NCBI GenBank assembly: GCA_044892505.1
Contig: CM097882.1
Span: 258,664,001 to 258,728,000 of the forward strand
Length of the DNA: 64,000 bases
Direction: 5' to 3'
From: Schmidtea nova
Lineage: Eukaryota
A model generated the notes under the pieces. That model saw only the letters and a program-made list of their open reading frames with translations. It had not been told where the DNA came from and ran no database searches. Shown in pieces: positions 29,721 through 58,970 of this stretch. Every line of letters starts with the position of its first letter. Within the stretch, counting starts at the first letter, position 1. The translations under genes and the position numbers were made by a program.

Positions 29721-29846
29721 TTTTTTGTGATTTAAAACAAATTGATTTTTTTTATATAAATAAATTGATAATTGATTTTAATATATAAATAATATGACAT
29801 TTAATTAAATAATATAATAACATATAATTATAACGGAGGCACTACA
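29340..29846 (-). repeat. 5' LTR (TGTAGT...ACTAAA)
   Basis: Direct repeat of 23533-24039, adjacent to the TSD and PBS. Confidence 0.95.
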
Positions 29847-29907
29847 CTATCCTGTTAAGCTATTTATATTTTGTGTCCTTGTTGTATCCTTCACAATGAC
29901 TTAGTTT

Positions 29908-31749: not shown

Positions 31750-32472
31750 GTCAATATATTTCGAGAACTTAATTCTCTTCATCAGGTGCTACACAATCTT
31801 ACATTCAAATATAAATCAAATAAATAGATTATTCAAACTAATTAGTATTAATTTTTAAAATAAAATATATATTTTAAATTCTATATTATAGTCAAAAAAA
31901 TTAAATCGATTAAAATTTTTTAATTTAAAAATATTTTTCTTAAAAATATAATATTCTTTTATTTGTATACAAAAAAATATTTTTTTAAAGAATATATTAT
32001 AAATATTTCCATATTTATAAACAACTGAATGATTGAAAACAAAATCCATAATCCCCAATTGAAAATGCTCTAAAACTTGAGTACAGAAGTCCAAAGTATG
32101 TGGCATTACGCCCATGACATTTGAAAAATTAAACGAGTATAGAACACAAATCAGAAGAAGAAAATAAACATCATAAACAACCACATCAGTTAATTTACTT
32201 AAACGACAAAAAATGAGGCAAACACATCGACTCAAAAGTCTCACACTCACATATTCACAAACATCGATATGACTGAAAACAACGCTAAATCCCATTAATT
32301 GACTCACCTCTGAAACTCGAATACAGAGAAGACAGGCAGTCTTTTCCAATGTATGTGGCATGTATGTGTATGTGTTTCCAATTTTAATCGATTTAAATTT
32401 TTTGACTATAATATAGAATTTAAAATATATATTTTATACAGGGTTATTCCAAAATATATATAATTTATTCCG

Positions 32473-32514
<42 letters not shown>

Positions 32515-34050
32515 TTCCAAAACATATATAAATTATTCCAGAATATATATACGAAATACGTTTTTAGTGAATATACAATACCCGTCCTCCGCTATCGTAT
32601 AAATCAGTTATTGTTAATTTATATATCAATTTATATTTTAAATTTCTTAAACCATATGGAAAAGCAACAGAATCTTAATACTCGTGAAAGGCGTGAAGAT
32701 ACAGTACCAACAGGTCCCGTGCGGAAGAAAAGAATCAACGTCTCAGTTGATATGATTAAATATTTTAAAAATATGGTCACAAAAGCTACACCAATCAAAG
32801 AAATTGCATCAACACTTGGAATTTCAATACAGTGCGTTTACAAAATGATGAGAAAGCACAAAGAATGCGTTGAAGAAAATATTCCAATGAAAGAAACAAT
32901 TAAGAAATGTGGACGTAAAAGAAAAGACGAATTGAGTGTTATCGAATCTAAAGTCCTTGAAATCATACAAAATGACTATAGTCTTACACAGAGAGGAGTG
33001 GTAGATAAATTAAGACAAATTAATATCAAATGCAGTTAATCGAATGTAAGTAAGATTTTTAAACGAACGAATATAACGAGGAAGCGACTTAAACGAAAAT
33101 CTTTAAAAACTGTAAGTGCTGAAGTTATCAACGCAAGAAAAATTTATGCCAGAGAAATGAAAATGATTAATAATTCGAGATTATTGTTTTTGGATGAAAG
33201 TGGATTTAATCTCCATACTACCAACAACTATGGATATTCGCCGAAGAACATTGATGCAATCAAGCTCGTACCAACAAACAGAGGCAGAAACATTTCACTT
33301 ATTTCAATTGTGTCATATAGTGGAATCTTAAAATACAAATCGTTGGATTGTGCTTTTAACAGTGTTGAGTTGATCGCATTCCTTGCCGAAGCAAAAACTC
33401 AAGAGTGTTTTTCCCAATTGTGTATTAGTATTGGACAATGTCAAATTTCATTATTCCCCTGGCGTAATACAATGGCTGAATGAGAACGAGGTTGATTACA
33501 AGTTTCTTCCCCCTTATAGTCCCGAACTCAATCCTATAGAGGAGGTATTTTCTGTAATTAAGGCGAGATATCATACTCTGAGGCCCCTACCTCGTAATTC
33601 CAACGACGTGAAATTTAATATTGCGAATGTTATTGAAAATATAAACGGTGATAATACTTTGATCTTTGAACACTTTTATGAAGATATGCGCAGATATCTT
33701 GACTTGTCATTACGTGGAGAGCAGTTTTGAAGCAATATTATGGAAATAAACCCATATTGAAAATAAGTTATATGTAGTAGTTCGAATTTTTGGTTAGTGT
33801 AAAATTCTATATATATTCTGGAATTTTTATATATATTCTGGAATATTTTATATATATTTTGGAATAAATTATATATGTTTTATAAATTATATAAATTATA
33901 TAAATTATAAATTATATAAATTATATATATTTCGGAATAATTTATATATATTTTGGAATAACCCTGTATTAAAAATTAATACTAATTTGTTTGAATAATC
34001 GATTTATATTTGAATGTAAGATTGGGTAGCACCTGATGAAGAGAATTAAG
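31750..34050. mobile_element. Penelope-like relic: inverted ~170-bp arms with a CTGATGA hammerhead core flanking GIY-YIG remnants; right arm split by the IS630-like element
   Basis: 31770-31915 is the reverse complement of 32380-32438 joined to 33967-34050. Minus strand 32060-32365 gives ATYIGK...RVSE...VFSHIDVC (frameshifted). Confidence 0.65.
32439..33966 (+). mobile_element. IS630-like/Tc1-superfamily DD34E transposon (1528 bp), transposase disrupted
   Basis: TA-CAGGGTTATTCCAAAATATAT ... ATATTTTGGAATAACCCTG-TA. ORF pieces 32611-33730 have an HTH, FLDESGFNL, VLVLDNVKFH, FLPPYSPELNPIEE. Confidence 0.9.
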
Positions 34051-34446: not shown

Positions 34447-35028
34447 NNNNNNNNNNNNNNNNNNNNNNNNNNNNNNNNNNNNNNNNNNNNNNNNNNNNNN
34501 NNNNNNNNNNNNNNNNNNNNNNNNNNNNNNNNNNNNNNNNNNNNNNNNNNNNNNNNNNNNNNNNNNNNNNNNNNNNNNNNNNNNNNNNNNNNNNNNNNNN
34601 NNNNNNNNNNNNNNNNNNNNNNNNNNNNNNNNNNNNNNNNNNNNNNNNNNNNNNNNNNNNNNNNNNNNNNNNNNNNNTTGTTTGCAAACTTTGGCTATTT
34701 CTTTGTGCGAGTCTGTGTGCGCATATTTTCTTCCATTGCGATATCGTAATCGCGTTCTGTGGAATTGGTGGTATTATTAAATTGATGGATTTTTGTGGAC
34801 TTAAAATCGGTTTGTGGATTATTTTCGGATTGTTTTAATAATCCGATTGAATTGGACTTTATGGGGGAATTTTAAATTGAATTTAATTTTGATTTCCTGA
34901 GTTTGGACATATTTGAATTTATTAGGAATTGATGTTTTTAGAAATTAATTAGGTACCATAATAAGCAAATGGAAAGTGATTTATTGAAATTTAAAAATTG
35001 CAAAGTATTCGAGTTTGAGAATTAAAAA

Positions 35029-35620
35029 ATGTCGATGTTGTCAAAATATTCCAAATTGATTTCCAAAGAGTCGTTTCTACTATTCTGTTTGATGATAAGA
35101 ACATCTTTGAGCATTTACGAAACAGGTTTAGATGGTAGGATTGTCCGATCTATTGTTCAAAGAGATGTTCAAAAGGTTATGATTCAATTACTGAAATTTC
35201 TATTGATTGCTCGTCCTGCTACGTTTGTCAATAGTTTTATTAGATTTCTAAAAAAGAGATCATCGATATGCTTCAGAACTAGGCTTGTGGAATATTCTTA
35301 TGAACTTTATTTCAAGCATCAAACCTATTATCGCGTGGAAAACATTGATTATCGAATTAAAAGGGTTGACCAAAGTCTCACAGAAGATATCTCGGTATTT
35401 TCATCATCATTAGCTCATTTATATTCTCAATTAACGAAACCATTTCTGGATCTATGCTTATTGTCATTTTCATTGTATGAACTTGCTCGAAATCGTGGAA
35501 CTAGTAGAAGAATTCGGTGTATTGTTGCTTCTGGAGTTGTTATCTCAACTGGAGAATTACTGCGATTTGACGATTGTCCCGGAATCCTCTCGAAAGTCCA
35601 TTTGAATGTTGTTTATTTAG
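35029..35620 (+). pseudogene. ABCD: Intronless, internally deleted ABCD1/2-like peroxisomal ABC transporter fragment
   Basis: RTSLSIY..GLDGRIVRSIV, PATFVNS.IRFL, FRTRLV, QTYYRV, DQSLTEDI..FS.SLAHLYS.LTKP.LD. After the TM region it jumps to ILSKVHL, which looks like a late NBD segment. Confidence 0.85.
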
Positions 35621-36144
35621 TTACGGAAATGAATAAAAATTATTATTTNNNNNNNNNNNNNNNNNNNNNNNNNNNNNNNNNNNNNNNNNNNNNNNNNNNN
35701 NNNNNNNNNNNNNNNNNNNNNNNNNNNNNNNNNNNNNNNNNNNNNNNNNNNNNNNNNNNNNNNNNNNNNNNNNNNNNNNNNNNNNNNNNNNNNNNNNNNN
35801 NNNNNNNNNNNNNNNNNNNNNTGATGAGCCATGTGTGCGCAATAATATCATTTTTTACTCGCGTCCGTGTGCGCATGATTTGTCTTTTGTAGCGTCTGTG
35901 TGCGCACTCGATGCTTTTTCTAGCTTACGTCTGTGTGCGCAGTTCAGCAGGATTTAATTGTTTTTTAACAATGGAATTTCTGAATTTTCAGAGTTATATA
36001 TTGTTTGATAGTATGAATTTGGATTTTTGTTGTTTTGATTTGGTGAGAATTTTTGAACATTTTGCTTTTTTCACATTAAGATTTTGAATTTAAATAAACG
36101 TTTGAAGAATTGAATTGTTTTTTCGCTCTTCCGTGTACAATAAA

Positions 36145-36382
36145 ATGATTGAAGACAATTTAGCTTCAAAATTGATGACTTCAGAATTTATCTTATTACA
36201 TTTCAATGATGTCTACAACGTCGAAGGTTATCCTAATGAACCGAAAACCAGTGTGGCTCGGTTTTCTATTGCTCTTCGAGAATCTCAAAAGAATTGTGAA
36301 TCATTAACGCTGTTCAATGGTGATTTTTAAAACCCGTCCATAATTAGTACAATGATTCATGGAGATCATGTGCAAGAAAGTT
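36145..36382 (+). pseudogene. 5'-nucleotidase/metallophosphoesterase pseudogene, left part
   Basis: ILLHFNDVYNVE, ARF, LFNGDF*NPSIIST..HGDHV; in-frame TAA at 36328-36330. Confidence 0.85.
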
Positions 36383-36929
36383 AGTAGAGTAGGGGGAGCG
36401 CCCAAGAACAGGAACAGACCCCCCTCCCCCCTAATTTTTTTTACCCCCCCCCCAAAAAATTTTTTTTTAATTTTTAATTTTGTTTGAATGAAGTGAATTT
36501 TTAAATTTTAATTTTTTGTTTAAATGAAGTCAATTTAATTTTATTATTTTNNNNNNNNNNNNNNNNNNNNNNNNNNNNNNNNNNNNNNNNNNNNNNNNNN
36601 NNNNNNNNNNNNNNNNNNNNNNNNNNNNNNNNNNNNNNNNNNNNNNNNNNNNNNNNNNNNNNNNNNNNNNNNNNNNNNNNNNNNNNNNNNNNNNNNNNNN
36701 NNNNNNNNNNNNNNNNNNNNNNNNNNNNNNNNNNNNNNNNNNNNNNNNNNNNNNNNNNNNNNNNNNNNNNNNNNNNNNNNNNNNNNNNNNNNNNNNNNNN
36801 NNNNNNNNNNNNNNNNNNNNNNNNNNNNNNNNNNNNNNNNNNNNNNNNNNNNNNNNNNNNNNNNNNNATTTATATTAATTATTAATTTTAATTTATTTAT
36901 TTTTAATTTATCATTTTTTGTAAAGGATT

Positions 36930-37800
36930 TTTACTCTGGCTGTTTTGAATAGGAATTTCTACTCCGAGATTTTCTAGAGCAAAAATGGACTCTGGGGTTT
37001 TTGTACAAGAATTTTTGATCTGGATTTTTGAATACAATATATTTGTATAAGATTTTTAGTCCTATTATTTTGTATAGGATTTTCAACTCCGAGATTTTCT
37101 CGGGCAAAAAGGGACTCTGAGTTTTTTGTACATGGAATTTTTATACATGAATTTTTGGTCTGGTATTTTTTGTATAGGATTTTTAGTCCTATTATTTTGA
37201 ATAGGATTTTCAACTCCCATATTTTTCTCAGGCAAAAAGGGACTCTGATAATTTTGAACTGAAATTTTAATGGTAAATAATAAACACGTGTAAATTTTTT
37301 TTTTTAACAAGTAAATTATCATTAAAGTATTTTGTATAGGATTTTCTACTCCGAGATTTTTCTCGGGCAAAAATAGACTCTGGTAATTTTGAACTGAAAT
37401 TTTAATGGTAAATAAAAAACACGTGTAAATTTTTTAAATAAGTAAATTATCATTAAAGTATTTTGTATATGATTTTCTACTCCCAGATATTTTCTAGGGC
37501 AAAAAATAGACTCTGGTAATTTTGAACTGAAATTTTATTGGTAAATAAAAAACACGTGTAAATTTTAAAACTAGTAAAATAGTTAGAAATTATTTTGAAT
37601 AGGATTTTCAACTCCGAGATTTTTATCGGGCAAAAAGGGACTCTGGGTTTTTTGAACATGAATTTTTGATCTAGATTTTTGAATACAATATTTTGATCTG
37701 ATATTTTGTAGTGTTTTTAGTCTGGTTATTTTGTATATGATTTTCTACTCCGAGATTTTTCTCAGGCAAAAAGGGACTCTGGTAATTTTGAATATGATTT
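36930..37800. repeat. Modular CAGAGTCCCTTTTTGCC-type repeat block, mirrored and longer at 47400-48730
   Basis: Recurring GGGACTCTG / CTCCGAGATTTT motifs. Confidence 0.85.
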
Positions 37801-37854
37801 TTGATCTTGATTTTGATTTTGAAATAATATTTTGGTCGGAGAAAATTAAAAAGT

Positions 37855-38215
37855 GGTCAGAATCAAATAATTTTTATACCAATCTACTGAGAATCGAATG
37901 GCGAACAAAAAAGGTTCAAAAAGTATAAACATGAAAATTTTGACTTTTCCGACCCAAATTTTACACGTAAAAATGGTCAACTCGGGGAAATTACAAAAAT
38001 CAAAAATGCTCAGAATCAAATAATTTTTATACCAATCTACTGAGAATCGAATGGCGAACAAAAAAGGTTCAAAAAGTAAAAACATGAAAATTTTGACTTT
38101 TCCGACCCAATTTTTACACGTAAAAAGGGTCAACTCGGGGAAATTCCAAAAATCAAAAATGCACAGAATCAAATAATTTTTATACCAATCTACTGAGAAT
38201 TGAAAGGCAAACAAT
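37855..38215. repeat. 153-bp tandem unit; core motif occurs 3 times here and 4 times at 46860-47370
   Basis: GAATCAAATAATTTTTATACCAATCTACTGAGAAT at 37860, 38013, 38166. Confidence 0.9.
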
Positions 38216-39419
38216 AATGGTCAAAAAATTAAAATCATGAAAAAATCAAAATTTTATACGTAAAATTACAGTCTCAGTAAAAAAGGGTAAAATACATAAA
38301 AACGTGGAAATATTTAAAATAAAAATTTTTAAACTAAATAATTAAATCTAAATAAATTTATGATAATTAAATAAAAAAGTAAATAAATTCTATACGAATT
38401 TCAAAACTCAATAAATAATTCACTCATTATTTTGTATTTAATTTATCAAGTAAAATGGTACATTAAATAAAAAAGTAAATAAATTCTATACAAATTTCAA
38501 AACTCAGTAAATAATTCACTCATTATTTTGTATTGAATTTATCAAGTAAAATGATACATTAAATAAAAGCATGGAAATAATAAGTAAATTAAACTTAGAA
38601 TTTAAAAATAATTTGTACTGGATTTATGAAAAATATCAAAGTAAATAAATTAAAGATAGAATTTTAAAAATAATTATGAATTTAATGATAAATAGAAATA
38701 TAAGTAAATTAAGAATAAAAAAGTAAATTAAGAAAGACGTGAGTTTTAATGTCATAATTTAAAAAAGAATTGCTTTTAAAGGAACTTTTTAAGGTAATAT
38801 TTGAAAAATGTGAGAATAATTAATTATTTTTGAAATTTTTTAAAGTAAAATTTATTAACAATAAGGTCAATGTAGAATTTTTTAGCAATAAAATCAATGA
38901 AAATTTTTTAATTAATATTTTTCATAAGTAAAATTTTTTAACTAATAAATACAAATCTAATTGTTTTTTCAATATGATGTTTTTTAAGGAAATGATCAAA
39001 TGTAGTAAATAAAACACATGTAAATATTGAATTTATTTAGAACAAAAAATAGTTATTAAACAAGAGTTTTTACAATTTTGTATACTAAGTTAAAAAATAT
39101 CAATTAATGACATAAATTTTTAAAAATAAACGTAATAATTNNNNNNNNNNNNNNNNNNNNNNNNNNNNNNNNNNNNNNNNNNNNNNNNNNNNNNNNNNNN
39201 NNNNNNNNNNNNNNNNNNNNNNNNNNNNNNNNNNNNNNNNNNNNNNNNNNNNNNNNNNNNNNNNNNNNNNNNNNNNNNNNNNNNNNNNNNNNNNNNNNNN
39301 NNNNNNNNNNNNNNNNNNNNNNNNNNNNNNNNNNNNNNNNNNNNNNNNNNNNNNNNNNNNNNNNNNNNNNCTAAGTACCAGCAATAAACCGATCAAATAA
39401 CTAATAATCTCATTACACA

Positions 39420-40270
39420 CACAAATCAACCACTGACTAGTAACTGATCAAATGCCAACTGAATCTATCCACAAATCAACAATCGACTAGTTACTTACAA
39501 GTTACCAACTGACTCTATATATTAACCAACTAGGAAATTGTTCCATGTGTCAATCACTTCCTATTGCCTATATATCAAATAATCCAATCCCCTTAGTTAA
39601 CAAATAGTACAATTCCTTACTTACTAACTTTATCTATACTAACCAACTAACTATACATACTAACCAGCAACCAATACCTTACTAACCAACTAGTTTTATA
39701 CATTAACCAACTAACTTTATTCACAAATCACCAACCAACTAACTAACTAACTAACCAGCAATCAATTCCTTACTAACCAACTAGTTCTATACATCAATCA
39801 ACTAACTCTTCACATTAACCAAGTAACTAACTAACTATACATACTAACCAGCAACCACTTCCTTACTAACCAACTAGTTATATACATCAACCAACTAACT
39901 CTTCACATTAACCAAGTAACTAACTAACTATACATACTAACCAGCAACCACTTCCTTACTAACCAACTAGTTCTATACATCAATCAACTAACTCTTCACA
40001 ATAACCAAGTAACTAACTAACTAACTAACCAGCAATCAATTCCTTACTAACCAACTAGTTCTATACATTAACCAACTAACTTTATCTATACTAACCAACC
40101 AACTACACTAACCAACTAACTAGCTATACATACTAATCTCTTACTAACCAACTAGTTCTATTCATTATTCTTGTACCAACCAACCAACTACATTAACCAA
40201 CTAACTAACTAACTAACCAATTCCTTACTTCCCAACTAACTCTTCTCATTAACCAACTAACTATTCATAA
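39420..40270. repeat. ACTA/ACCA-rich low-complexity satellite, mirrored at about 44950-45720
   Basis: Recurrent ACTAACCAACTAGTT with strong C/A strand skew. Confidence 0.9.
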
Positions 40271-43200
40271 ATCAACAACAGACTAGTTAATTATTAAATA
40301 TCAATTGATTCTATCCACAATCTACTAGTTAAAACAACTAATCGGATACCAACTGACTCTATATATTAAACAAATAAATCTTCACTCTAAGGAAATTGTT
40401 CCACGTATCAATTAACTCTTCGCATTAACTAGATATGATATTTAAAACTATCTGATTCTAAATATCGTGTCATAAAATTAAATTTATTACTTTGAATAAT
40501 TTAATTAATCTTTAGTTGATTATCAGTTTTCAAAAAGGTATACTAATATCTACATAGTTAAAATGAAATTTTTTATTAATTAAAGTTATTAAAATTTTGA
40601 ATATATTTAAAATGCAAATGACTTTTAATACAAAGCTCTATTGAAATCATTGTTCATCTATTTTTTCACTTGATAACTAACATGTATAATTAATTTAAAA
40701 ATCATTATAAAAACTCTGTTAACTAGGTAAACATATTAAAATGATAAGTAAGCAACTAATGAAATATTTTTTGATACTTCTTATTACATGTCCAATTAAA
40801 TTCTTCACTCCGATAATTTAAAAGAATAAATAAATAAATATTCAAATAATTCTAAAAATTAATAAAAATTAATTCAAAATTTCAATACAAATATTTATTT
40901 ATTAAACATGCTAAACAGTACTACCAAATGTTTTTGTTATTGGATTCTAGTATCAGATTCTATTATTTCCAATTCACATCAACATTGACGATATGATTTT
41001 CATCAATAGCAATGGATAATAAAATCCAATTGGTTCAAACATGTGTATTTTATCAGGTTTCACATAAACTGCAATCATGAAAATATAATTTGAATCTTTT
41101 ACAGGTAAAAACCATCACAAAAGAGGTTCTGTTACCAAAGGTTCTGCTAGAAAGGTTCTGCTACGTGATAAATTTAATGAAAATGTATCAATAATAGTAT
41201 ATAAGTGAATATACAATATGAATCTTTTTACAGGTAAAAACCATCACAAAAGAGGTTCTGTTACTAAAGGTTCTGCTAGAAAGGTTCTGCTACGTGATAA
41301 ATTTAATGAAAATGTAACAATAATAGTATATAAGTGAATATACAATATGAATCTTTTACAGGTAAAAACCATCACAAAAGAGGTTCTGCTACCAAAGGTT
41401 CTGCTAGAAAGGTTCTGATACTGAATATAATTGTTAATAATGAATTTTACCAAAATATTTATTAATTTTTCATTTTAAATATTTTTAGTGAATTATTAAT
41501 ATTAATATTTTTATTATTAACACGTAATAATTTTGCAACATTAAATCTGTTTCGAATGTTCATTATGAAATTTATAAAAGTTGATATAATAAGAAAAAAT
41601 AATCAATTTATTCACAAAGGGCAAATTATGTTAAACGAAATCTGATTGGTCAATTTAAATTATGAAAACATATATATATAAATTGATTAAAAATTACAGA
41701 TTTCATTAAAAATGTATCAACTTAAAAGTAAGTTTAATTAATTTTGAATGATTATTTTTTAATATTTTTCTCTTGAATCTTCGAACAAAAAGATGTTTAA
41801 ACAAAAAGTAATGAAAATTATTCTTAATGATGTTGTCAAACCTGTTTTGAAAAATTATAGAAACAAATATATGTGAATAAAATTTATTTATCAAATCTTA
41901 TCTTTTCATTTCATTTTATTTTATTTTATTTTATTTTATTTTATTTTTTGTTTTGGTTAATTTAAATTTTTAATAATAATTATTTTTTGTGTTAAATTTA
42001 TTACCAAATATTTAAAATCGATTAGTTTTTTATTAAAATAAAAATAATTAATTTTTTATTTTATTTTATTTTTTGTTTTGGTTAATTTTAATTTTTAATA
42101 ACAATTATTTTTTGTGTTAAATTTATTACCAAATATTTAAAATCGATTAGTTTTTTATTAAAATAAAAATAATTAATTTTATTATCATAATTATTCTAAA
42201 TTGATTTTGTTTTAATAATTGATTATACGTTTAAAATTAAAATTCAAAATAATTTTCTTTAATATTTTCCCGGCAACAATAATTAATTCGGAATTTGATA
42301 TATATTCGAATATATATCAAATTCCGAATTAATTATTGTTGCCGGGAAAATATTAAAGAAAATTATTTTGAATTTTAATTTTAAACGTATAATCAATTAA
42401 TAAAACAAAATCAATTTAGAATAATTATGATAATAAAATTAATTATTTTTATTTTAATAAAAAACTAATCGATTTTAAATATTTGGTAATAAATTTAACA
42501 CAAAAAATAATTGTTATTAAAAATTTAAATTAACCAAAACAAAAAATTAAATAAAATAAAAAATTAATTATTTTTATTTAATAAAAAAAAACTAATCAAT
42601 TTTAAATAATTGGTAATAAATTTAACACAAAAAATAATTGTTATTAAAAATTAAAATTAACCAAAACAAAAAATAAAATAAAATAAAAAATTAATTATTT
42701 TTATTTTAATAAAAATCTAATCGATTTTAAATATTTGGTAATAAATTTAACACAAAAAAATAATTGTTATTAAAAATTAAAATTAACCAAAACAAAAAAT
42801 AAAATAAAATAAAAAATTAATTATTTTTATTTTAATAAAAAACTAATCGATTTTAAATATTTGGTAATAAATTTAACACAAAAAATAATTATTATTAAAA
42901 ATTTAAATTAACCAAAACAAAAAATAAAATAAAATAAAATAAAATGAAATGAAAAGATAAGATTTGATAAATAAATTTTATTCACATATATTTGTTTCTA
43001 TAATTTTTCAAAACAGGTTTGACAACATCATTAAGAATAATTTTCATTACTTCTTGTTTAAACATCTTTTTGTTCGAAGATTCAAGAGAAAAATATTAAA
43101 AAATAATCATTCAAAATTAATTAAACTTACTTTTAAGTTGATACATTTTTAATGAAATCTGTAATTTTTAATCAATTTATATATATATGATTTCATAATT

Positions 43201-43439
43201 TAAATTTGACCAATCAGATTTCGTTTAACATAATTTGCCCTTTGTTAATAAATTGATTATTTTTTCTTATTATATCAACTTTTATAAATTTCATAATGAA
43301 CATTCGAAACAGATTTAATGTTGCAAAATTATTACGTGTTAATAATAAAAATATTAATATTAATAATTCACTGAAAATATTTAAAATGAAAAATTAATAA
43401 ATATTTTGGTAAAATTCATTATTAACAATTATATTCAGT

Positions 43440-44150
43440 ATCAGAACCTTTCTAGCAGAACCTTTGGTAGCAGAACCTCTTTTGTGATGGTTTTTACCTG
43501 TAAAAGATTTATATTGTATATTCACTTATATACTATTATTGTTACATTTTCATTAAATTTATCACGTAGCAGAACCTTTCTAGCAGAACCTTTGGTAGCA
43601 GAACCTCTTTTGTGATGGTTTTTACCTGTAAAAGATTCATATTGTATATTCACTTATATACTATTATTGTTACATTTTCATTAAATTTATCACGTAGCAG
43701 AACTTTTCTAGCAGAACCTTTGGTAGCAGAACCTCTTTTGTGATGGTTTTTACCTGTAAAAGATTTATATTGTATATTCACTTATATACTATTATTGTTA
43801 CATTTTCATTAAATTTATCACGTAGCAGAACCTTTCTAGCAGAACCTTTGGTAGCAGAACCTCTTTTGTGATGGTTTTTACCTGTAAAAGATTCATATTG
43901 TATATTCACTTATATACTATTATTGTTACATTTTCATTAAATTTATCACGTAGCAGAACTTTTCTAGCAGAACCTTTGGTAGCAGAACCTCTTTTGTGAT
44001 GGTTTTTACCTGTAAAAGATTCATATTGTATATTCACTTATATACTATTATTGATACATTTTCATTAAATTTATCACGTAGCAGAAACTTTCTAGCAGAA
44101 CCTTTGGTAACAGAACCTCTTTTGTGATGGTTTTTACCTGTAAAAGATTC
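43440..44150. repeat. 128-bp tandem unit, about 5.5 copies (about 2.5 copies at 41095-41420)
   Basis: GCAGAACCTT..TAGCAGAACCTTTGG recurs at 128-bp spacing. Confidence 0.9.
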
Positions 44151-47100
44151 AAATTATATTTTCATGATTGCAGTTTATGTGAAACCTGATAAAATACACA
44201 TGTTTGAACCAATTGGATTTTATTATCCATTGCTATTGATGAAAATCATATCGTCAATGTTGATGTGAATTGGAAATAATAGAATCTGATACTAGAATCC
44301 AATAACAAAAACATTTGGTAGTACTGTTTAGCATGTTTAATAAATAAATATTTGTATTGAAATTTTGAATTAATTTTTATTAATTTTTAGAATTATTTGA
44401 ATATTTATTTATTTATTCTTTTAAATTATCGGAGTGAAGAATTTAATTGGACATGTAATAAGAAGTATCAAAAAATATTTCATTAGTTGCTTACTTATCA
44501 TTTTAATATGTTTACCTAGTTAACAGAGTTTTTATAATGATTTTTAAATTAATTATACATGTTAGTTATCAAGTGAAAAAATAGATGAACAATGATTTCA
44601 ATAGAGCTTTGTATTAAAAGTCATTTGCATTTTAAATATATTCAAAATTTTAATAACTTTAATTAATAAAAAATTTCATTTTAACTATGTAGATATTAGT
44701 ATACCTTTTTGAAAACTGATAATCAACTAAAGATTAATTAAATTATTCAAAGTAATAAATTTAATTTTATGACACGATATTTAGAATCAGATAGTTTTAA
44801 ATATCATATCTAGTTAATGCGAAGAGTTAATTGATACGTGGAACAATTTCCTTAGAGTGAAGATTTATTTGTTTAATATATAGAGTCAGTTGGTATCCGA
44901 TTAGTTGATTTAACTAGTAGATTGTGGATAGAATCAATTGATATTTAATAATTAACTAGTCTGTTGTTGATTTATGAATAGTTAGTTGGTTAATGAGAAG
45001 AGTTAGTTGGGAAGTAAGGAATTGGTTAGTTAGTTAGTTAGTTGGTTAATGTAGTTGGTTGGTTGGTACAAGAATAATGAATAGAACTAGTTGGTTAGTA
45101 AGAGATTAGTATGTATAGCTAGTTAGTTGGTTAGTGTAGTTGGTTGGTTAGTATAGATAAAGTTAGTTGGTTAATGTATAGAACTAGTTGGTTAGTAAGG
45201 AATTGATTGCTGGTTAGTTAGTTAGTTAGTTACTTGGTTAATGTGAAGAGTTAGTTGGTTGATGTATATAACTAGTTGGTTAGTAAGGAAGTGGTTGCTG
45301 GTTAGTATGTATAGTTAGTTAGTTACTTGGTTAATGTGAAGAGTTAGTTGATTGATGTATAGAACTAGTTGGTTAGTAAGGAATTGATTGCTGGTTAGTT
45401 AGTTAGTTAGTTGGTTGGTGATTTGTGAATAAAGTTAGTTGGTTAATGTATAAAACTAGTTGGTTAGTAAGGTATTGGTTGCTGGTTAGTATGTATAGTT
45501 AGTTGGTTAGTATAGATAAAGTTAGGAAGTAAGGAATTGTACTATTTGTTAATTAAGGGGATTGGATTATTTGATATATAGGCAATAGGAAGTGATTGAC
45601 ACATGGAACAATTTCCTAGTTGGTTAATATATAGAGTCAGTTGGTAACTTGTAAGTAACTAGTCGATTGTTGATTTGTGGATAGAGTCAGTTGGCATTTG
45701 ATCAGATACTAGTCAGTGGTTGATTTGTGTGTGTAATGAGATTATTAGTTATTTGATCGGTTTATTGCTGGTACTTAGNNNNNNNNNNNNNNNNNNNNNN
45801 NNNNNNNNNNNNNNNNNNNNNNNNNNNNNNNNNNNNNNNNNNNNNNNNNNNNNNNNNNNNNNNNNNNNNNNNNNNNNNNNNNNNNNNNNNNNNNNNNNNN
45901 NNNNNNNNNNNNNNNNNNNNNNNNNNNNNNAATTATTACGTTTATTTTTAAAAATTTATGTCATTAATTGATATTTTTTAACTTAGTATACAAAATTGTA
46001 AAAACTCTTGTTTAATAACTATTTTTTGTTCTAAATAAATTCAATATTTACATGTGTTTTATTTACTACATTTGATCATTTCCTTAAAAAACATCATATT
46101 GAAAAAACAATTAGATTTGTATTTATTAGTTAAAAAATTTTACTTATGAAAAATATTAATTAAAAAATTTTCATTGATTTTATTGCTAAAAAATTCTACA
46201 TTGACCTTATTGTTAATAAATTTTACTTTAAAAAATTTCAAAAATAATTAATTATTCTCACATTTTTCAAATATTACCTTAAAAAGTTCCTTTAAAAGCA
46301 ATTCTTTTTTAAATTATGACATTAAAACTCACGTCTTTCTTAATTTACTTTTTTATTCTTAATTTACTTATATTTCTATTTATCATTAAATTCATAATTA
46401 TTTTTAAAATTCTATCTTTAATTTATTTACTTTGATATTTTTCATAAATCCAGTACAAATTATTTTTAAATTCTAAGTTTAATTTACTTATTATTTCCAT
46501 GCTTTTATTTAATGTATCATTTTACTTGATAAATTCAATACAAAATAATGAGTGAATTATTTACTGAGTTTTGAAATTCGTATAGAATTTATTTACTTTT
46601 TTATTTAATGTACCATTTTACTTGATAAATTAAATACAAAATAATGAGTGAATTATTTATTGAGTTTTGAAATTCGTATAGAATTTATTTACTTTTTTAT
46701 TTAATTATCATAAATTTATTTAGATTTAATTATTTAGTTTAAAAATTTTTATTTTAAATATTTCCACGTTTTTATGTATTTTACCCTTTTTTACTGAGAC
46801 TGTAATTTTTCGTATAAAATTTTGATTTTTTCATGATTTTAATTTTTTGACCATTATTGTTTGCCTTTCAATTCTCAGTAGATTGGTATAAAAATTATTG
46901 AATTCTGACAACTTTTTAATTTTTGGAAATTCCCCGAGTTGACCCTTTTTACGTGTAAAAATTGGGTCGGAAAAGTCAAAATTTTCATGTTTTTACTTTT
47001 TGACCCTTTTTTGTTCGCCATTTAATTCTCAGTAGATTGGTATAAAAATTATTTGATTCTGAGCATTTTTGATTTTTGGAATTTCCCCGAGTTGACCATT

Positions 47101-49328
47101 TTTACATGTAAAAATTGGGTCGGAAAAGTCAAAATTTTCATGTTTATACTTTTTGAACCTTTTTTTTCGCCATTCGATTCTCAGTAGATTGGTATAAAAA
47201 TTATTTGATTCTGAGCATTTTTGATTTTTGGAATTTCCCCGAGTTGACCATTTTTACGTGTAAAAATTGGGTAGGAAAAGTCAAAATTTTCATGTTTTTA
47301 CTTTTTGAACCTTTTTTGTTCGCCATTCGATTCTCAGTAGATTGGTATAAAAATTATTTGATTCTGACCACTTTTTAATTTTCTCTGACCAAAATATTAT
47401 TTCAAAATCAAAATCAAGATCAAAAATCATATTCAAAATTACCAGAGTCCCTTTTTGCCTGAGAAAAATCTCGGAGTAGAAAATCATATACAAAATAACC
47501 AGACTAAAAACACTACAAAATATCAGATCAAAATATTGTATTCAAAAATCTAGATCAAAAATTCATGTACAAAAAACCCAGAGTCCCTTTTTGCCCGATA
47601 AAAATCTCGGAGTTGAAAATCCTATTCAAAATAATTTCTAACTATTTTACTAGTTTTAAAATTTACACGTGTTTTTTATTTACCAATAAAATTTCAGTTC
47701 AAAATTACCAGAGTCTATTTTTTGCCCGAGAAAATATCTGGGAGTAGAAAATCATATACAAAATACTTTAATGATAATTTACTTATTTAAAAAATTTACA
47801 CGTGTTTTTTATTTACCATTAAAATTTCAGTTCAAAATTATCAGAGTCCCTTTTTGCCTGAGAAAAATATGGGAGTTGAAAATCCTATTCAAAATAATAG
47901 GACTAAAAATCCTATACAAAAAATACCAGACCAAAAATTCATGTATAAAAATTCCATGTACAAAAAACCCAGAGTCCCTTTTTGCCCTAGAAAATTACGG
48001 AGTAGAAAATCCTATACAAAATAACCAGACTAAAAACACTACAAAATATCAGACCAAAATATTGTATTCAAAAAATCCAGATCAAAAATACTATTCAAAA
48101 ATTCCCTGTACAAAAACCCAGAGTCTCTTTTTGCCCTAGAAAATTGTGGGAATTGAAAATCATATTGAAAATAATTTCAATGTATTTTACTAGTTTAAAA
48201 AATTTACACGTGTTTTTTATTTACCAATAAAATTTCAGTTCAAAATTACCAGAGTCTATTTTTGCCCGAGAAAAATCTCGGAGTAGAAAATCCTATACAA
48301 AATACTTTAATGATAATTTACTTGTTAAAAAAAAAAATTTACACGTGTTTATTATTTACCATTAAAATTTCAGTTCAAAATTATCAGAGTCCCTTTTTGC
48401 CTGAGAAAAATATGGGAGTTGAAAATCCTATTCAAAATAATAGGACTAAAAATCCTATACAAAAAATACCAGACCAAATATTCATGTATAAAAATTCCAT
48501 GTACAAAAAATCCAGAGTCCCTTTTTGCCCGAGAAAATCTCGGAGTTGAAAATCCTATACAAAATAATAGGACTAAAAATCTTATACAAAAATATTGTAT
48601 TCAAAAATCCAGATCAAAAATTCTTGTACAAAAACCCCAGAGTCCCTTTTTGCTCTAGAAAATCTCGGAGTAGAAATTCCTATTCAAAACAGCCAGAGTA
48701 AAAATCCTATACAAAATAACCAGAGTAAAAATCCTTTACAAAAATAAATTAATTAAAAATAAATAAATTAAAATTAATAAAAATAAATAAATTAATAAAA
48801 ATTAATAAAAATAAATTAATAAAAATAAATTATTAAAAATAAATTATTAAAAATAAATTATTAAAAATAAATTAAAATAAATTAAAATAAATAAATTAAT
48901 AATTAATATAAATTAATATAAATTAATAAAAATTAATAAAAATAAATTAATAAAAATAAATTATTAAAAATAAATTATTAAAAATAAATTATTANNNNNN
49001 NNNNNNNNNNNNNNNNNNNNNNNNNNNNNNNNNNNNNNNNNNNNNNNNNNNNNNNNNNNNNNNNNNNNNNNNNNNNNNNNNNNNNNNNNNNNNNNNNNNN
49101 NNNNNNNNNNNNNNNNNNNNNNNNNNNNNNNNNNNNNNNNNNNNNNNNNNNNNNNNAAAATAATAAAATTAAATTGACTTCATTTAAACAAAAAATTTAA
49201 ATTTAAAAATTCACTTCATTGAAACAAAATTAAAAATTAAAAAAAAAATTTTTTGGGGGGTGGGTAAAAAAAAATTTTTAGGGGGGAGGGGGTCTGTTCC
49301 TGTTCTTGGGCGCTCCCCCTACTCTACT

Positions 49329-49483
49329 AAAGTTTGAATGAACTCGATATTGATGTGGCCGTGTCATGTGGCAATCATGATTTTGCCTTCGTAGTTGTCA
49401 AGTTAATGCAATGTGTGGACAAAATAAGTTTCCAATGGTTGAATAGTGATATCTTTAATATCTTAGCTCGATTAAAACAATAA
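49329..49483 (+). pseudogene. 5'-nucleotidase/metallophosphoesterase pseudogene, right part
   Basis: The joined empty site reads HVQESLNELDIDVAVSCGNHDFAF...QWLNSDI, including the GNHD motif. Confidence 0.85.
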
Positions 49484-50608: not shown

Positions 50609-50881
50609 TCAACGAATGTTTTCATCCCTTTCTTCTTCTATTGAAGAATGCGTATTTACGGACATGGATTTGATTTTGAATAATTTCGGTTTTTGTTTTA
50701 ATGATGTGTTCGATTTCGATATGTCACTCGATTGTTCTTGATTTTTTTTCAACATTGACAGCTGAAATTGGTACCATTCTTTGTTTGACTCTAGTGTCTC
50801 GAGCATTTCTTGAGCATTAGGGTACACCAGTTCGGCCCAGGTTGACCACAAAGGTCGCACAATAAAATCAATAAAACTAAC
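50609..50881 (-). CDS. PDE4: PDE4 last coding exon
   Basis: [37 protein letters not shown]; acceptor AG at 50882-50883; stop at 50609. Confidence 0.95.
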
Positions 50882-50932
50882 CTAAAGTAGAGGCAATATT
50901 AAAAAAGTTTGCTTTACATTTGTATTTTTTAC

Positions 50933-51238
50933 TTGAGATTTTTCAATCGAAGCAGTTGCTCTGTCACACATCGGACTGATCTCAACTTTTGAGTCTCTTT
51001 CTTTGTCGCCTTGCCGAAAGAATTCTTCCATAATTCTTTGAGTCCACTCTTGATACAATGACAACGGTTTCGTTGGGTTGCTGAGATCAGCACAGTGAAC
51101 CATATTTTGTAAAATTAGCAATCGATCGGAATAGCCTTCGAAATTCAATACTCCTGATCCGGATAATTTTTTCCCTTCTACCATTTGTTTAAGTTCAGAC
51201 AACAATGACATGTGCTTTGACATATCAGTGGCAAGCAC
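50933..51238 (-). CDS. PDE4: PDE4 exon
   Basis: [40 protein letters not shown]; GT-AG intron 50882-50932 (51 nt). Confidence 0.97.
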
Positions 51239-52639
51239 CTGTGTATAACATATTGTATAGTTTTATGAATTGAAAACCAATTAATTGAGACTACTGACTA
51301 ATATTTTCAAAAAGTGTCGTCCAGATCTCGTGGAACAGACAAAAATGCAAAGATTAATAATAAAAAGCGACACTCAAATAACCGTTTTGCTACGCATTTC
51401 TAAAGGTGCAATGTCATCATCAGGTAGAAAATAAAAATAAAATTGTTTTATATATTTTTAAAGCCCGTTATATATTAAATTATTTTAATAATTCAAAAAA
51501 AATTTTAATTTTATTTGTTTCACTATTTCCGAAAAATATTAAAAATTTTAATAATTTAACAATAAAATTTAAAATTTTTAAAATTAATTAATTTTCGGAT
51601 CAAATGATCTTAGTAGCAACACAAATCTTCCCAATAATTATCAGAAAATTTTTGATAAAATTTTGTTTGAGTTATACAAAATTAAAAAGAAACAAAAAAT
51701 GTGCAAAATTAATTAATAATTAATTAAATTTTCAAAAACGGTAAAAATCAATATTTTTCTTGGGGAAAGTGGCAATCGACGGCAAATTAAAAGTTAAAAC
51801 GAATAAAATAATTTTAAAATAATTTGGAGTTCCTATGAAGTGCTAGGACAAAAAAACAAATTAATTAGTTGATTTCATTAATCATCAGAACGATCTTATC
51901 AATCATTGTGGAGAAAAAGACAAATGTTCAGACTAGACAAGCCGGAAAATTGTTTGTCAAAGTCAGAGGGGGGGGGTAGCTAGTAGCAAATGGAAAATAA
52001 GCATGTCAAAAGTAGATAATTTTCCGGGGTTTCTTCTTTTCCCACATTGACTGATTTGATTAAGCTTAGCATATAAACAAATACATTTTAGTTTAATTTG
52101 CCAGTTTGTCAAACAAGTGAAATTTAGTGCCAATCAGATTTTATGGGTGATATCCTTACGATTATCTACCCAAAGAGAAAATAATATTTTTTAAAACTGA
52201 CTATATAAATAACTTTGAGATTNNNNNNNNNNNNNNNNNNNNNNNNNNNNNNNNNNNNNNNNNNNNNNNNNNNNNNNNNNNNNNNNNNNNNNNNNNNNNN
52301 NNNNNNNNNNNNNNNNNNNNNNNNNNNNNNNNNNNNNNNNNNNNNNNNNNCTATTATTAATAAAAACACGAAATTGCCAAACAATAGAAATATATTTCAA
52401 GGACATAGTCCTCATCATCAGTCTGCCATCATAATCTAAATCAAATGCTATATACGGAAACAGTAATGACGTAATGGCTATGATTTAATGAGTTATTAAA
52501 TAATCTCAATAAATTCGTTGCTGATTGAATATTAATTGTAGGGGATTGTGATTTAATCACCAACGCCTCACATAAAATTCTTTCCTATTTATTGTTAAAG
52601 TTTTTTAACATAATTTTAAAATCTTTTAAATCAGTTTCT

Positions 52640-53290
52640 CCTTTACACATTTTTCTATGCTCAATAATATTACTCACACCTTTCAATCGGCTATGTTCCT
52701 GAACCGTGTGCGGAGATGACGGGAAGTCTCTCCAATGTATGTGGCATTGCACCCATTACATGACAACCTTTACACTAGATCAGACACTAAACCTATTGGG
52801 GTTTGAGATTTATTACTGAACATATTTACTGATTTTAAAGACTTTGAAACTATGTTAAATATGTTAGAATTTCCTAAGGATTTCATTACAGAACACTTAT
52901 AGTTTTTAAATAGATTCTGTATGGGACTGATTTGAGGTTTTTTTCGGTACCACAAGAAATTCCGTCTCAAGTCGCCAGTTGGCATGCTTGATTTATATAA
53001 ATTTTTATTTTTTTGATCGTTGAAAAGGTTTTTTTGTTAAACACTGGATTTGACAACATATTCATGTTTATAAAGCATCCAAAAATACATAACTGTCGGA
53101 TGCACATTTTATGGTGACAAAGTTGATCAGCGGTAAGTCTACGATTGAATGTAGATCTTGAATATCAGTGGAATAAATAGTTATTGAAATAGGCTAAGAT
53201 AAATGCGGTGTGAAAAATTTACAGAATAAATCTAAAAATGTCTACAAATTCATAAATGAAATGTATCGACCTGCTGAACAAGTTGCGGTG
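52640..53290 (-). mobile_element. Decayed Penelope-like RT/GIY-YIG remnant in a PDE4 intron
   Basis: SQTPIGLVSDLV*...CNGCNATYIGETSRHLRTR; eroded VDTF and FLD RT motifs upstream. Confidence 0.75.
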
Positions 53291-54246
53291 ATAATCAATA
53301 ATTATCTGCCGTTCACATATCAAATGGAACTCAAATTTTAGGGAAAACATTTTTCGTCTGCTTTTATTTATATTCTTAGAAAATTCTTTTGTACATTATA
53401 TTTAATGATAATTATTTGCTACTCATATTTCTCCTAAGACTAGCATGGATATATTTTATTGCCTTCCCCTGTGTTAGGTATAAATGTATAGTTTATTTTA
53501 TTTTATATTTTATTGTGTATTTCACTCTACTGGTCTACGGTAGAGGTCGGCAAAAATTATATAAATTCATACTTTTCATTTCATTCTTTAAGGTCTTTTA
53601 TATTTTTGGTAAAATTAAAATGACCCTTGTTAAAAGGGTCGCTGATCCCTGATTTTCAAGGTGAAAAATGTCAATGATTTTCTGGAAGGAAGTTTTGATA
53701 ACTAGTGATATTTCAATCATAGTGCCACACAAACTGAACTACATGCTTTAACATTTCAATTTCCCCTGGCCAGATCTTGTTACTGTCAGTGAGCAACATT
53801 GGTATATGTATAATGTAATAATAGGAGTTAACGTAGCGACCTAATGTACAGTTCTCAATTTGTTATGGACTTTACGCAAAGCTATGCTTATCAACCATAT
53901 CTTTGGTGGTCGGTAATGTTTTGTTTGATTTTGCGTTTTGCTCAATTTAAATACTGCCAATTTCTTAAGCACATATTTACTGAAATTTCAACCGTTCAAA
54001 AATTGAATTGACTACTTTGAAATACAATAAAGTCTAGTCAACTCCCTTTCTGTGCATGATGCTCTTTGATCAAATAATCTTCTGAACTATAAAAAGAATC
54101 CAAAATTGAATAAATAAATTCTTACTTAACATATTGTTGTCGGAAAACGAAAAATTACGTTTTTCATGTGTCATATGTTGCAATGTAATATACGTAAATA
54201 AGCGTATTATTCATAATGTTCGTTGATTGCAGAATTTGTATAAATA

Positions 54247-55283
54247 CCCCGGCCTACCAAACGTCTCCAATCAAGCAGTTATTTACATATTGCAGTTTAT
54301 AATAAACATCTGCGGTGCAAATATTAACAACAATGGGAACAAAGATCACCAACACCTTCAACATGCTGCATGCGCACATGTACACACACGCGCACACACA
54401 GACACAAACAGAATATGACTACTCACGCCAGACACACAGCAGTGATAACAGTGAGACATTTTAATGAAGGATTGTCACTTTATTAGGATATAACTGCTCA
54501 CACCAGACACACGACAGTGATAATTCGTCGTCGTCGCTTGAAGTGGTGTCGGGAGAGAAGGAGTTGGACAGCAGAACAATGGCGCTCAGTCATTTGGAGT
54601 GATGAATCACATTTCACTCTTTTCAAATCTGATGGACAGCAATTCTGCTGGCGTCGTGTAGGAGAACGGTTTCACCCTGACAGCATTCAGCACACTGTGA
54701 AATATGAAGGAGGCTCCATCATGTTTTGGAGTCTTTTTTCAGCTCGTGGATTTGGTCCTCTAGTGAAGTGCAGCAATCACATGACGTCAGTGGAATACCG
54801 TGCCATTCTGGAAAACGAGCTTGTTCCCTTTCTCCCAGAAATCGAGGGGCTCATTTTCCAACAGGATAATGCACCAATCAATACTTAGCACATTATAAAA
54901 GAATTCTTTCTGAAGCACAAGATCAACTTTTTGGATTAGTTTCCACGAAGTCCTGATCTGAATTTTATTGAGTTTCTGTGAAACATCCTTGGTAGACAAG
55001 TTCGCAAAAGGTTTCCCATTGCCCGTAATGCCTTCGAACTAGAAACTCATCTGCCTGAGAAATGGTCACACATCTCCCCTGATTTCCTGGCAAGTGGTCG
55101 ATACAATGCCTAAACGAGTGCGCCTTGTTATCCAGATGAAAGGTAATATAACGAAGTACTAACTCTCTCAGCACTACAGAGATTCAGTATTCGTGTGTGT
55201 TTGTAACATTTGTTCCCATTTCTGTTCATTATAAACTGCATTATGTATATAACTGCCTGACTGGAGACTTTTGGTAGGTTTTC
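54247..55283 (+). mobile_element. Internally deleted Tc1 (DD34E) element
   Basis: Imperfect ~90-bp TIRs (CCTACCAAA.GTCTCCA.TCA.GCAGTTA). Motifs WSDESHF, GGSIMFW, FQQDNAP, SPDLNFIE. Confidence 0.85.
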
Positions 55284-56793
55284 TATATTGCCGAAATATC
55301 AGATGACAACATCATGAGCCATGCTACCTTGTTGGGGTATTTAGCTGGTCAGTCTGACAACCGAGTATTTTTAATAAACACGTGTTATTGCATTATTATT
55401 ATTGAAATATATTTTATTATGACAACTTTTTACACGGCCCTGACTCTTACGATATATTTTTATCGAAGGAAAGGTTCATCGCGAGAAACCGAAAACAAAT
55501 CATATAAAAATTCACAATACATTAGAAATTACAGTGATTTTTTAAAACCGCTTTTCGCCCATTTCCCCTTGAATGATACCGACTACGTTGCGGCAAGCAA
55601 ACTGAATGTCATTAACAAAAATTGTTTATGAAAACTCTTATCATTCTTTATGTGAATGGTTCTTTACATTTAGAGTCACGGTCCACCTTATGACCAATAA
55701 TGTCTTAGCTGTTACCTATTCTTCATTATTTATGCATATTTAAAAAATATCAATTATCATTTTATTATTAAAACAAATTTTTAATACACAAATTTATTTA
55801 TTTATAAAATTAACAAAACATATTCCATAATATGCATAAATGTAAATAAATTTAAAATAAAAAAATTCATTTAATTATTTGGAAATCCTAAAAAATTTAT
55901 TTTTATATCAAAAGATGTCTTTGACGCTAAAAGCTTTTCCTAAATAAAGAATTTTGTTGGATTGGTTATATATGATTCTTAACCTAACTTGGCAGACCAC
56001 TCAATGTTTTCATTGTTACTTATCGCAATATTTTATAGCTATTGCCGAATAACTATAAAATTCAAAAACAAATTAAATGAAAATATGAGCGAACTTTTAC
56101 AATGAAAAATGAAATATAAAGAATAATCAAATTAAATTCCTAAATTTTGATTGATGATAAGAATAGATCATCAGAATTTACCAAGTATGATCTGCAATGG
56201 AGAATGGATCAACTGGATCATCTGTAACACGGTTGACATGATCGGAAGTGATTGATGAAAAAATAAATCAACTATAAACCAAATTTTACGTTATAAACAG
56301 AAATGTTTACTAAATTATTTATAGAATCAAAAATATAATTAAAAACATTTTAGATTATTTCTATGACAAGCTGCAATCCATCAATTGATAAAACGTAGCA
56401 GTCTTTACACAGTATTTCAAGGACTATAAAATTCGCATCTCTCCTCACTTTATATTGCTATTATTATAGGAGAGAAATGATAAATGATATTTTATAAACT
56501 CTTCTGTCTCAATTGACTGTTAATTATGCTAGNNNNNNNNNNNNNNNNNNNNNNNNNNNNNNNNNNNNNNNNNNNNNNNNNNNNNNNNNNNNNNNNNNNN
56601 NNNNNNNNNNNNNNNNNNNNNNNNNNNNNNNNNNNNNNNNNNNNNNNNNNNNNNNNNNNNNNNNNNNNNNNNNNNNNNNNNNNNNNNNNNNNNNNNNNNN
56701 NNNNNNNNNNNNNNNNNNNNNNNNNNNNNNNNNNNNNNNNNNNNNNNNNNNNNNNNNNNNNNNNNNNNNNNNNNNNNNNNNNNNNNNNNNNNN

Positions 56794-57190
56794 CGTTAGC
56801 AGAGTTTATTAAAATATAATAATAAGGTAACAATAGTAAGCCTTCTCCGCAATGTTTATTTAAATGAAATATTTCGATCTTTAAAAGATCCTGATCACTC
56901 AATGCGAAATTCTTTCCAATTGATATTCCACTTCTTTCTGGATATTTTCCTTCTCCTGAATTCTGATTTAATGTTAATTATTTAAACAAATTAAGATTTA
57001 TTTATGAGATATATTAAATAAAATTTTTAATTTAAAATAAAATTTAAAAATATTTTATTTAATTATTTTCATTAATTAGAGCATCCTTTTTTTAAAAAAA
57101 ATTTTTAAAAATCATATAGAGAGTCAAAGTCCTTTAATTAATAAAATGTTATTTTTTTAAATAAAAACATTTTAAAAAATCAAAAGAAAA
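56794..57190. repeat. ~400-bp dispersed repeat; deleted direct copy at 57363-57500, inverted copy at 63235-63630
   Basis: CGTTAGCAGAGTTTATTAAAATATAATAATAAGG... shared by all three. Confidence 0.9.
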
Positions 57191-58815: not shown

Positions 58816-58970
58816 TAAATCTATAACGATTTTCCTTAATGAATATCTTTGAGTTTTATTCAAAGAAGCGAAAATATTGCATCCGGGCTTTTGAAGAAAT
58901 CTGAACGCTACTGCCAAATGATGATTTTCAAGAACGGAAGTATCATTGTACATTATAGCTAATTCATGAC
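58816..58970 (-). CDS. PDE4: PDE4 exon
   Basis: [22 protein letters not shown]...LRKIVIDL; AG acceptor 58971-58972, GTAAG donor. Confidence 0.95.

Follow-up and report, generated by a model that had tools for sequence, protein, structure and literature searches.

Foldback transposons (FB, Galileo) have long modular inverted repeats, break and rearrange neighbouring DNA, and are moved by a cut-and-paste transposase with a target-site duplication (TSD) of 7–9 bp. In snap-back or copy-back defective viral genomes, which are helper-dependent, one end and its adjacent sequence are copied back on themselves. Non-autonomous Polintons, gene-less but with Polinton ends, were reportedly described by Kapitonov and Jurka in 2006. 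The subject of this work is a 12,946-bp inverted-repeat element at positions 36383–49328 of a 64,000-nucleotide stretch of the Schmidtea nova genome (assembly GCA_044892505.1, contig CM097882.1, 258,664,001–258,728,000, forward strand), referred to as the window. The element is a gene-less, fully palindromic derivative of a Polinton (also called Maverick), likely served in trans by the polymerase and integrase of a helper, and one arm is likely re-copied from the other during replication, before insertion. Polinton descent, within-copy re-copying of the arms and two further Polinton-derived palindrome families are new with respect to an earlier note, which was made from the letters of the window alone.

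The window element differs from foldback transposons in TSD length, ends and enzyme. With snap-back genomes it would share arms that are identical at birth, a timing taken from the pPolB-bearing palindromes described below and extended to the window family. Unlike those viral genomes, the window family is fixed in a host's DNA, where its hundreds of copies bear the footprints of an integrase. The pPolB, integrase, packaging ATPase, protease and capsid genes of autonomous Polintons are absent from it, except for a protease remnant. As in non-autonomous Polintons, the termini are those of a helper, the copies are many and dispersed with the helper's TSD, and internal homology to the helper is retained. 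Polinton-1N1_DR-type elements are likewise gene-less with Polinton ends. The name Polinton-1N1_DR, of a zebrafish element, occurs in a passage of PMC9341505. The 5'-AG...CT-3' ends, short terminal repeats, 6-bp TSD and similar length are features of Polintons in passages of PMC10748475, PMC8097293 and PMC6431247, although AGTAGAGTAG is not a letter-for-letter match to the vertebrate motifs (AG)3 or (AGT)2 given in a section of PMC8097293. Terminal inverted repeats of autonomous Polintons span 100–1,500 bp in a passage of PMC10748475, whereas here the repeat takes up the whole element (arms of 5.9 and 7.0 kb). Undersized helper-dependent adenovirus vectors, presented in excerpts of PMC4189039 and PMC12111873 as protein-primed linear replicons in need of their ends and a helper, are non-integrating laboratory constructs, whereas the dimer in the window is natural and germline-integrated, and its packaging is putative.

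Polinton virions have not been observed, according to a passage of PMC10748475. Polinton replication and virion formation are deduced from gene content, and palindromes of this kind provide a genomic record able to test both. A search of the Polinton/Maverick literature gave no account of whole-element palindromes, arm re-copying or several palindrome families per genome; Repbase/Dfam, supplements and the 2006 founding description lay outside the search and may hold such elements.

Architecture of the Window Element

The element (21.5% GC) starts with AGTAGAGTAG at 36383, ends with CTACTCTACT at 49328 and has the 6-bp TSD AAAGTT on either side. The terminal sequences and the duplication, as given in the earlier note, were confirmed by direct reading. 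Its claim of a single whole-element inverted repeat also held: self-comparison gave one nested inverted repeat in which 93% of the bases have an inverted partner, and both stretches without one are runs of N. Four such runs (861 bases in total) were counted, not the three gaps stated before. The features are as follows, with the strand where there is one; family 1 and family 2 are the helper Polintons described below.

36377–36382: left TSD AAAGTT (direct reading and end-pair survey)
36383–36424 (+): left terminus (42 bases), the same in every base as the 15-kb family-1 Polinton end; likely serves as origin and as site for the integrase
36383–42307 (+): left arm, 5,925 bp
36913–37792: subterminal 125/135-bp tandem arrays; mirror at 47578–48734
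37842–38243: 153-bp array, 2.6 copies; mirror at 46828–47382, 3.6 copies
39640–40165: 93-bp array, 5.7 copies; mirror at 45075–45509, 4.7 copies
40920–41075 (−): 52-codon remnant of a Polinton adenain-type protease, left arm (tblastn, 60–69% identity, E 2e-15 to 2e-18)
41078–41421: 128/129-bp array, 2.7 copies; mirror at 43438–44164, 5.7 copies
41628–41825 (−): remnant of the Polinton region directly before the pPolB gene, 75–77% identical
41929–42185: 125/126-bp array, 2 copies; mirror at 42430–42939, 4 copies
42216–42399: palindromic centre, perfect and spacer-free, axis between 42307 and 42308, around a (TA)n-TTCGAA-(TA)n hairpin
42308–49328 (−): right arm (7,021 bp), which repeats the left arm in inverted orientation
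44167–44322 (+): protease remnant, right arm
49288–49328 (−): right terminus (41 bases), the same in every base as the end of the family-1 Polinton
49329–49334: right TSD AAAGTT (direct reading and end-pair survey)

The axis lies in a perfect palindrome of 184 bp without spacer, whose 106-base core has a folding z of −15.7, with none of 200 shuffles equally stable. Arm lengths are unequal because the tandem arrays (units of 93–153 bp) differ in copy number, and outside the arrays 19 differences between the arms were counted over 3,551 filtered sites (0.54%).

The absence of coding sequence stated in the earlier note stands for long genes and fails for the 52-codon protease piece on each arm. 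A search with 35 helper frames found no pPolB, integrase, ATPase or capsid gene in the element, the protease remnant being the only coding trace. The longest stop-free frame has 149 codons, Pfam gave nothing for the two longest frames, and Rfam gave no match for the element. Its N runs are unreadable for genes, and two N-free copies likewise lack long frames.

Copies, Target-Site Duplications and Descent

The central 46-mer of the element has 483 exact sites in the assembly, and a marker from the arm has 796 + 834 sites. Among the first 100 arm-marker sites listed, 64 form 32 facing pairs that lie 3–8 kb apart (hand count), which extrapolates to some 500 copies with two arms and some 1,000 loci. 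The copies fetched all lie in the first 59 Mb of contig C1; because the margins were fixed, one or both ends are missing from several of them. Giant size, many copies, the absence of genes and the helper's termini and TSD agree with the non-autonomous satellite of the earlier note.

TSDs were surveyed over all families at 46 pairs of ends separated by more than 3 kb. An exact 6-bp duplication was present at 38, one mismatch at 5, and inverted flanks at 3. Other TSD lengths, which the earlier note had named as speaking against its assignment, did not appear: no end pair had an exact duplication of 4, 5, 7, 8 or 9 bp. Together with termini identical to those of a family-1 Polinton, this bears out the Polinton/Maverick-type ends claimed there. 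The mismatches fall at positions 1, 6, 2, 2 and 6, so a bias toward the element-adjacent base was considered and not retained as a clean signal. The hexamers lean to a symmetric N-W-Y-R-W-N, with T/C at position 3 in 35 of 43 and A/G at position 4 in 34 of 43, and loci L132 and L134 have the same imperfect TSD, AATAAT/ACTAAT.

The protease remnant on each arm identifies the element as a Polinton that has decayed and been folded back upon itself. In DNA likeness it is closer to family 2 (81% in the protease region, 81–89% in the subterminal repeats, the latter found in the 153-bp array) than to family 1 (74%), so the body derives from a family-2-like Polinton. Most fetched copies of the window family bear family-1 ends. 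One copy, L144, combines a window-type body with family-2 termini at both ends (TSD TGTTGG, arms 99.1% alike), as expected if one end changes and is then re-copied, and window-type bodies with family-2 termini (L144–L145; L077) suggest a switch of helper.

Thirty-seven hairpin-bearing copies were classified by eye: the hairpin is the axis in 8, it is followed by an AT-rich centre in 15, and the junction lies within about 35 bases of the tip in 14. This last class is what cruciform breakage would leave. Single-arm copies of 4–9 kb had been considered as parents of the palindromes, but the clustering of their junctions at the hairpin makes most of them more probably products of deletion. An unrelated repeat that contains a perfect palindrome with arms of about 90–98 bp adjoins two copies (L031–L032, at about 16,040 of the joined stretch; L067–L068).

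Helper Polinton Families

The terminal 23-mer of the window element has 2,771 + 2,811 exact matches (5,582 sites) in the 1.25-Gb genome, and a control had none. Among the first 100 matches listed, most facing pairs of termini are separated by about 15 kb, about 13 kb or about 0.5 kb. Three of the 15-kb end pairs were fetched, each with a 6-bp TSD and a common set of frames. This family-1 Polinton has 41–42 terminal bases identical to those of the window element and 84% identity over about 170 bases, and is the autonomous partner that the earlier note had envisaged, with the same terminus and with pPolB, integrase, ATPase, protease and capsid.

Its pPolB has 1,398 aa with the expected motifs, and homologues bear PF03175; a PDB sequence search with the protein gave no match, so the identity rests on motifs and homologues. 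An A32-type ATPase (PF04665), an rve integrase (PF00665) with a chromodomain, a TBP-like protein (PF00352, E 7e-17, L021:1559–2083, minus strand) and a pX/mu-like core protein are also encoded. A 409-aa protein has the predicted fold of a double jelly-roll capsid (pLDDT 93), matched by Foldseek to the SGIV capsid (E 8e-17), to mavirus (6e-13) and also to the PBCV-1 capsid. Two paralogues of 348 and 338 aa are putative minor capsid proteins, their Atlas relatives being all unnamed. The protease had been thought missing, which was rejected once a protease frame was found downstream of the capsid gene; the family-2 protease frame matches PF00770. Likewise, a reading of the integrase as broken was dropped, as its stop lies within a 42-base GT...AG stretch (L021:3784–3825), likely an intron. 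Both genes seem to be spliced, at L021:3784–3825 for the integrase and at L021:8264–8617 for the protease, whose frame lacks its own start.

Family 1 is young and large. A 24-mer of its capsid gene has 1,564 exact sites in the genome, and 84 of the 102 capsid copies scored reached the top query score. With hundreds of copies of each palindrome family, palindromes and helpers make up a large share of the genome's mobile DNA. Family-2 Polintons end in AGTAGGGG, share the gene order of family 1 and have 81–86% DNA identity to it. A third, more distant Polinton family (L099, L108, L156–L159), with about 70% identity to family 1, has protease and 407-aa capsid frames.

Likeness of the Arms within Copies

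Arms inside a copy are closer to each other than any two copies are. In a tree of 55 arms over 1,125 columns, from which arms lacking any one of seven segments were left out, the two arms were sisters in 17 of 18 two-armed copies. Shared minor alleles were found on both arms in 331 cases vs. 78 on one arm, and substitutions private to a single copy were on both arms in 81 cases and on one arm in 144. Over the 300 pairs of 25 copies there were 9,014 copy-fixed columns and 20 shared arm asymmetries, with at most 2 per pair. The closest pairs have no shared asymmetry: L049/L063 with 3 fixed and 15 one-arm differences, and L043/window with 7 fixed and 17. Arm differences are thus not inherited, whereas faithful copying around the centre would preserve them, which argues for re-copying of the arms. 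Arm divergence within copies is 0.02–2.1%, a range comparable with paired long terminal repeats (LTRs) of retroelements of differing age. If identical at birth, the arms would indicate an intermediate in hairpin form and could be used, as LTRs are, as a clock to date insertions.

Two Further Palindrome Families and the Timing of Re-Copying

The 0.5-kb facing end pairs are the centres of a second palindrome family, in which family-2 Polinton arms of 6.6–7.0 kb, each with pPolB, are folded around a 0.5-kb mini family-1 element (L116–L135, L103–L106; e.g., C1:5102647–5116712). Its junction has 725 + 714 sites. Both ends lay in the fetched span in 9 of 11 copies, which are 13.8–14.4 kb long and have TSDs. 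In 7 of these 9 complete copies the arms are 99.3–99.9% alike through to the terminal base, and copies differ by about 2%. A third family (L136–L139) is folded around a mini family-2 element, with 145 + 133 junction sites; the two copies read have 13,791 and 14,291 bp and arms 99.6 and 99.9% alike. Since the inner flanks in both families are inverted and not duplicated, the fold-back likely started from the inverted ends of the small element itself.

The timing of arm equalisation was evaluated on the pPolB of palindromes carrying it (11 copies, 22 arms). For variants common to at least two copies, the non-synonymous/synonymous ratio is 0.08 after normalisation. Those on both arms but private to one copy comprise 49 non-synonymous or stop vs. 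88 synonymous changes (normalised 0.14), and those on one arm 51 vs. 20 (normalised 0.66); both-arm and one-arm variants differ in selection (Fisher p = 1e-6). The palindrome-borne pPolB is under purifying selection, in place or via exchange with helpers. As both-arm variants are under purifying selection, and mutations arisen in the chromosome and then converted would look neutral, the arms were mostly equalised in a replicating lineage before insertion.

Proposed Mechanism and Alternative Explanations

The proposed route begins with what can be read in the genome: descent from a Polinton, indicated by the protease remnant and the family-2-like subterminal repeats, with the helper termini carried, and hundreds of insertions with 6-bp TSDs. 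From the ends and the TSD, mobilisation would take place in trans by helper proteins. By analogy with protein-primed replicons in general, helper pPolB would begin protein-primed strand-displacement synthesis at one end; a half-length hairpin would then arise either through folding of the nascent strand at the central hairpin or through cutting and sealing of the molecule there. As with snap-back defective virus genomes, the next round of copying would turn it into a duplex of 13 kb whose arms are identical, and the helper integrase would insert this duplex. After insertion, the patterns seen in the copies suggest arm drift (0.02–2.1%), changes in array length, and breakage at the centre with one-sided deletion.

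Several points weigh against this account. Mixing arithmetic allows up to about a quarter of the both-arm variants to be neutral and converted in the chromosome, and the pPolB timing is carried over to the non-coding window family by inference. Fold-back and cut-and-seal both fit the data, and the EndoVII-like insert of the helper pPolB scores 20.6 bits, below the Pfam cut-off of 23.6. This analysis, made on genome sequence, revealed no extrachromosomal molecule and no protein or activity. Moreover, L075 and L093 hold an inverted arm copy and 1.9–2.4 kb of host flank inside the original TSD pair, so fold-back also happens in the chromosome. Finally, a 38.6-kb copy (L111–L115, C1 at about 43.053–43.092 Mb; TSD TTGGCG) has three tandem 5.8-kb units per arm, with a variant pattern that does not appear to be mirrored.

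These observations lend weight to an explanation in which the 13-kb element is copied faithfully and its arms are kept alike later, in the chromosome, by gene conversion and break repair at the cruciform-prone centre. Fold-back duplication did occur at L075 and L093, the 38.6-kb copy looks rearranged in place, in 14 of the 37 hairpin copies a junction falls no more than about 35 bases from the hairpin centre, and long palindromes of sex chromosomes are kept alike in this way. Nevertheless, we consider it unlikely as the general cause: both-arm pPolB variants are under purifying selection and one-arm variants near neutral, the closest copy pairs (L049/L063 and L043/window) share no arm differences, and in the second family arm identity reaches the terminal bases. 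The selection contrast also bears on the very improbable case of an assembly artefact, a 6.5-kb element folded on itself by long reads or by the assembler. Palindromic long reads are a known artefact, and no short-read contig spans the window element, but the flanks of the element are distinct, with a directly repeated TSD and a host frame that stays in phase, its arms differ in array numbers and by 0.5% of substitutions, and the same centre is present at 483 sites. A one-off artefact is excluded because hundreds of copies have TSDs of their own. As for a foldback DNA transposon from a different superfamily (FB/MuDR or Galileo/P) whose ends merely resemble those of Polintons, very long modular inverted repeats made of tandem arrays do look like foldback elements; this is hardly credible in view of the 6-bp TSD (0 of 46 exact at 7, 8 or 9 bp), the ends identical to a Polinton's, the Polinton protease remnant inside, and coding partners that, where fetched, are Polintons. 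Re-copying of one arm before insertion is thus retained as the probable explanation.

Rearrangement at Insertion Sites

Inverted flank duplications of 1.7–3 kb centred on the element were found at L075 (with L097–L098) and L093 (with L101–L102), and less clearly at L091, L084 and L094. Either elements of the window family rearrange host DNA in place, or the assembly errs at those loci. With many copies broken at the centre and some duplications of inverted host DNA, the palindromes constitute fragile sites.

Length Pattern and Possible Packaging

Symmetric complete copies measure, by family, 12.4–13.4 kb (9 copies), 14.0–14.4 kb (8 copies) and 13.8–14.3 kb (2 copies), so that the three families amount to 82–94% of the helper length (five helpers, mean 15.2 kb). 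These length lists were hand-chosen, with asymmetric or insertion-bearing copies left out, from fetch spans in which a complete copy longer than about 15.4 kb would have been missed. The pattern comes from three families only, two of which share an arm source.

Passages of PMC4189039 describe rearrangement of adenovirus genomes that fall short of 75% of wild-type length, toward larger size, or exceed 105% of it, and the packaging of a 15-kb vector as direct and inverted dimers. The 82–94% of the palindromes lies inside these bounds. By analogy, the near-helper lengths of the palindromes may reflect capsid packaging. A fuller version is offered tentatively and has the odds against it: Polintons would form particles, and the palindromes of three independent families, each doubling a half-length arm, would be natural inverted dimers under selection for filling the capsid, replicated through a central hairpin that is possibly cut by the EndoVII-like domain; two families, with their selected pPolB, would copy themselves but depend on others for capsid and integrase. 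The TSD-flanked copies of 4–11 kb and the one of 38.6 kb weigh against a packaging limit. If the proposal is true, the genome records a virus–satellite system and gives indirect evidence for the unobserved Polinton virions; the convergence of three families on a near-helper length makes a packaging limit testable.

Insertion Site and Neighbourhood

The element interrupts a host frame, of which two pieces flank it:

36145–36382 (+): left piece, with a stop at 36328–36330
49335–49438 (+): right piece, in phase, containing GNHD

Excision was said in the earlier note to restore an in-frame reading frame with GNHD. The phase does continue to GNHD, but the stop sits 17 codons ahead of the insertion, so the frame is a dead gene fragment. 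Its motifs suggest a putative metallophosphoesterase; the interrupted fragments gave no Pfam or NCBIfam match. The empty-site join, in which 36382 runs straight into the bases after the right TSD, was present in contigs of two of four short-read runs, all from a single study that may include the assembled sample. It may stem from an allele or from a paralogue, the latter being possible because the flank is itself repeated. In these runs the summed contig depth is much higher at the terminus than at the flank, a value that does not measure copy number.

The dead GNHD-type fragment at 36145–36382 (+), which is repeated elsewhere as judged by contig depth and loose ends, adjoins an intron-less ABC transporter membrane fragment (PF06472) at 35026–35646 (+). 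Both are possibly captured gene pieces. On the other side, exons of a cyclic-nucleotide phosphodiesterase (PF00233) lie at 50700–62850 (−) of the window, the last exon found being about 1.4 kb from the right end of the element. An LTR retrotransposon with gag and pol frames occupies 23515–29852 on the minus strand, with direct repeats of 519 bp (23527–24045 and 29334–29852) that are 98.7% alike. Tc1/mariner-like remnants are located at about 8400–9550, 14940–15720, 32460–33730 and 54490–54890 of the window.

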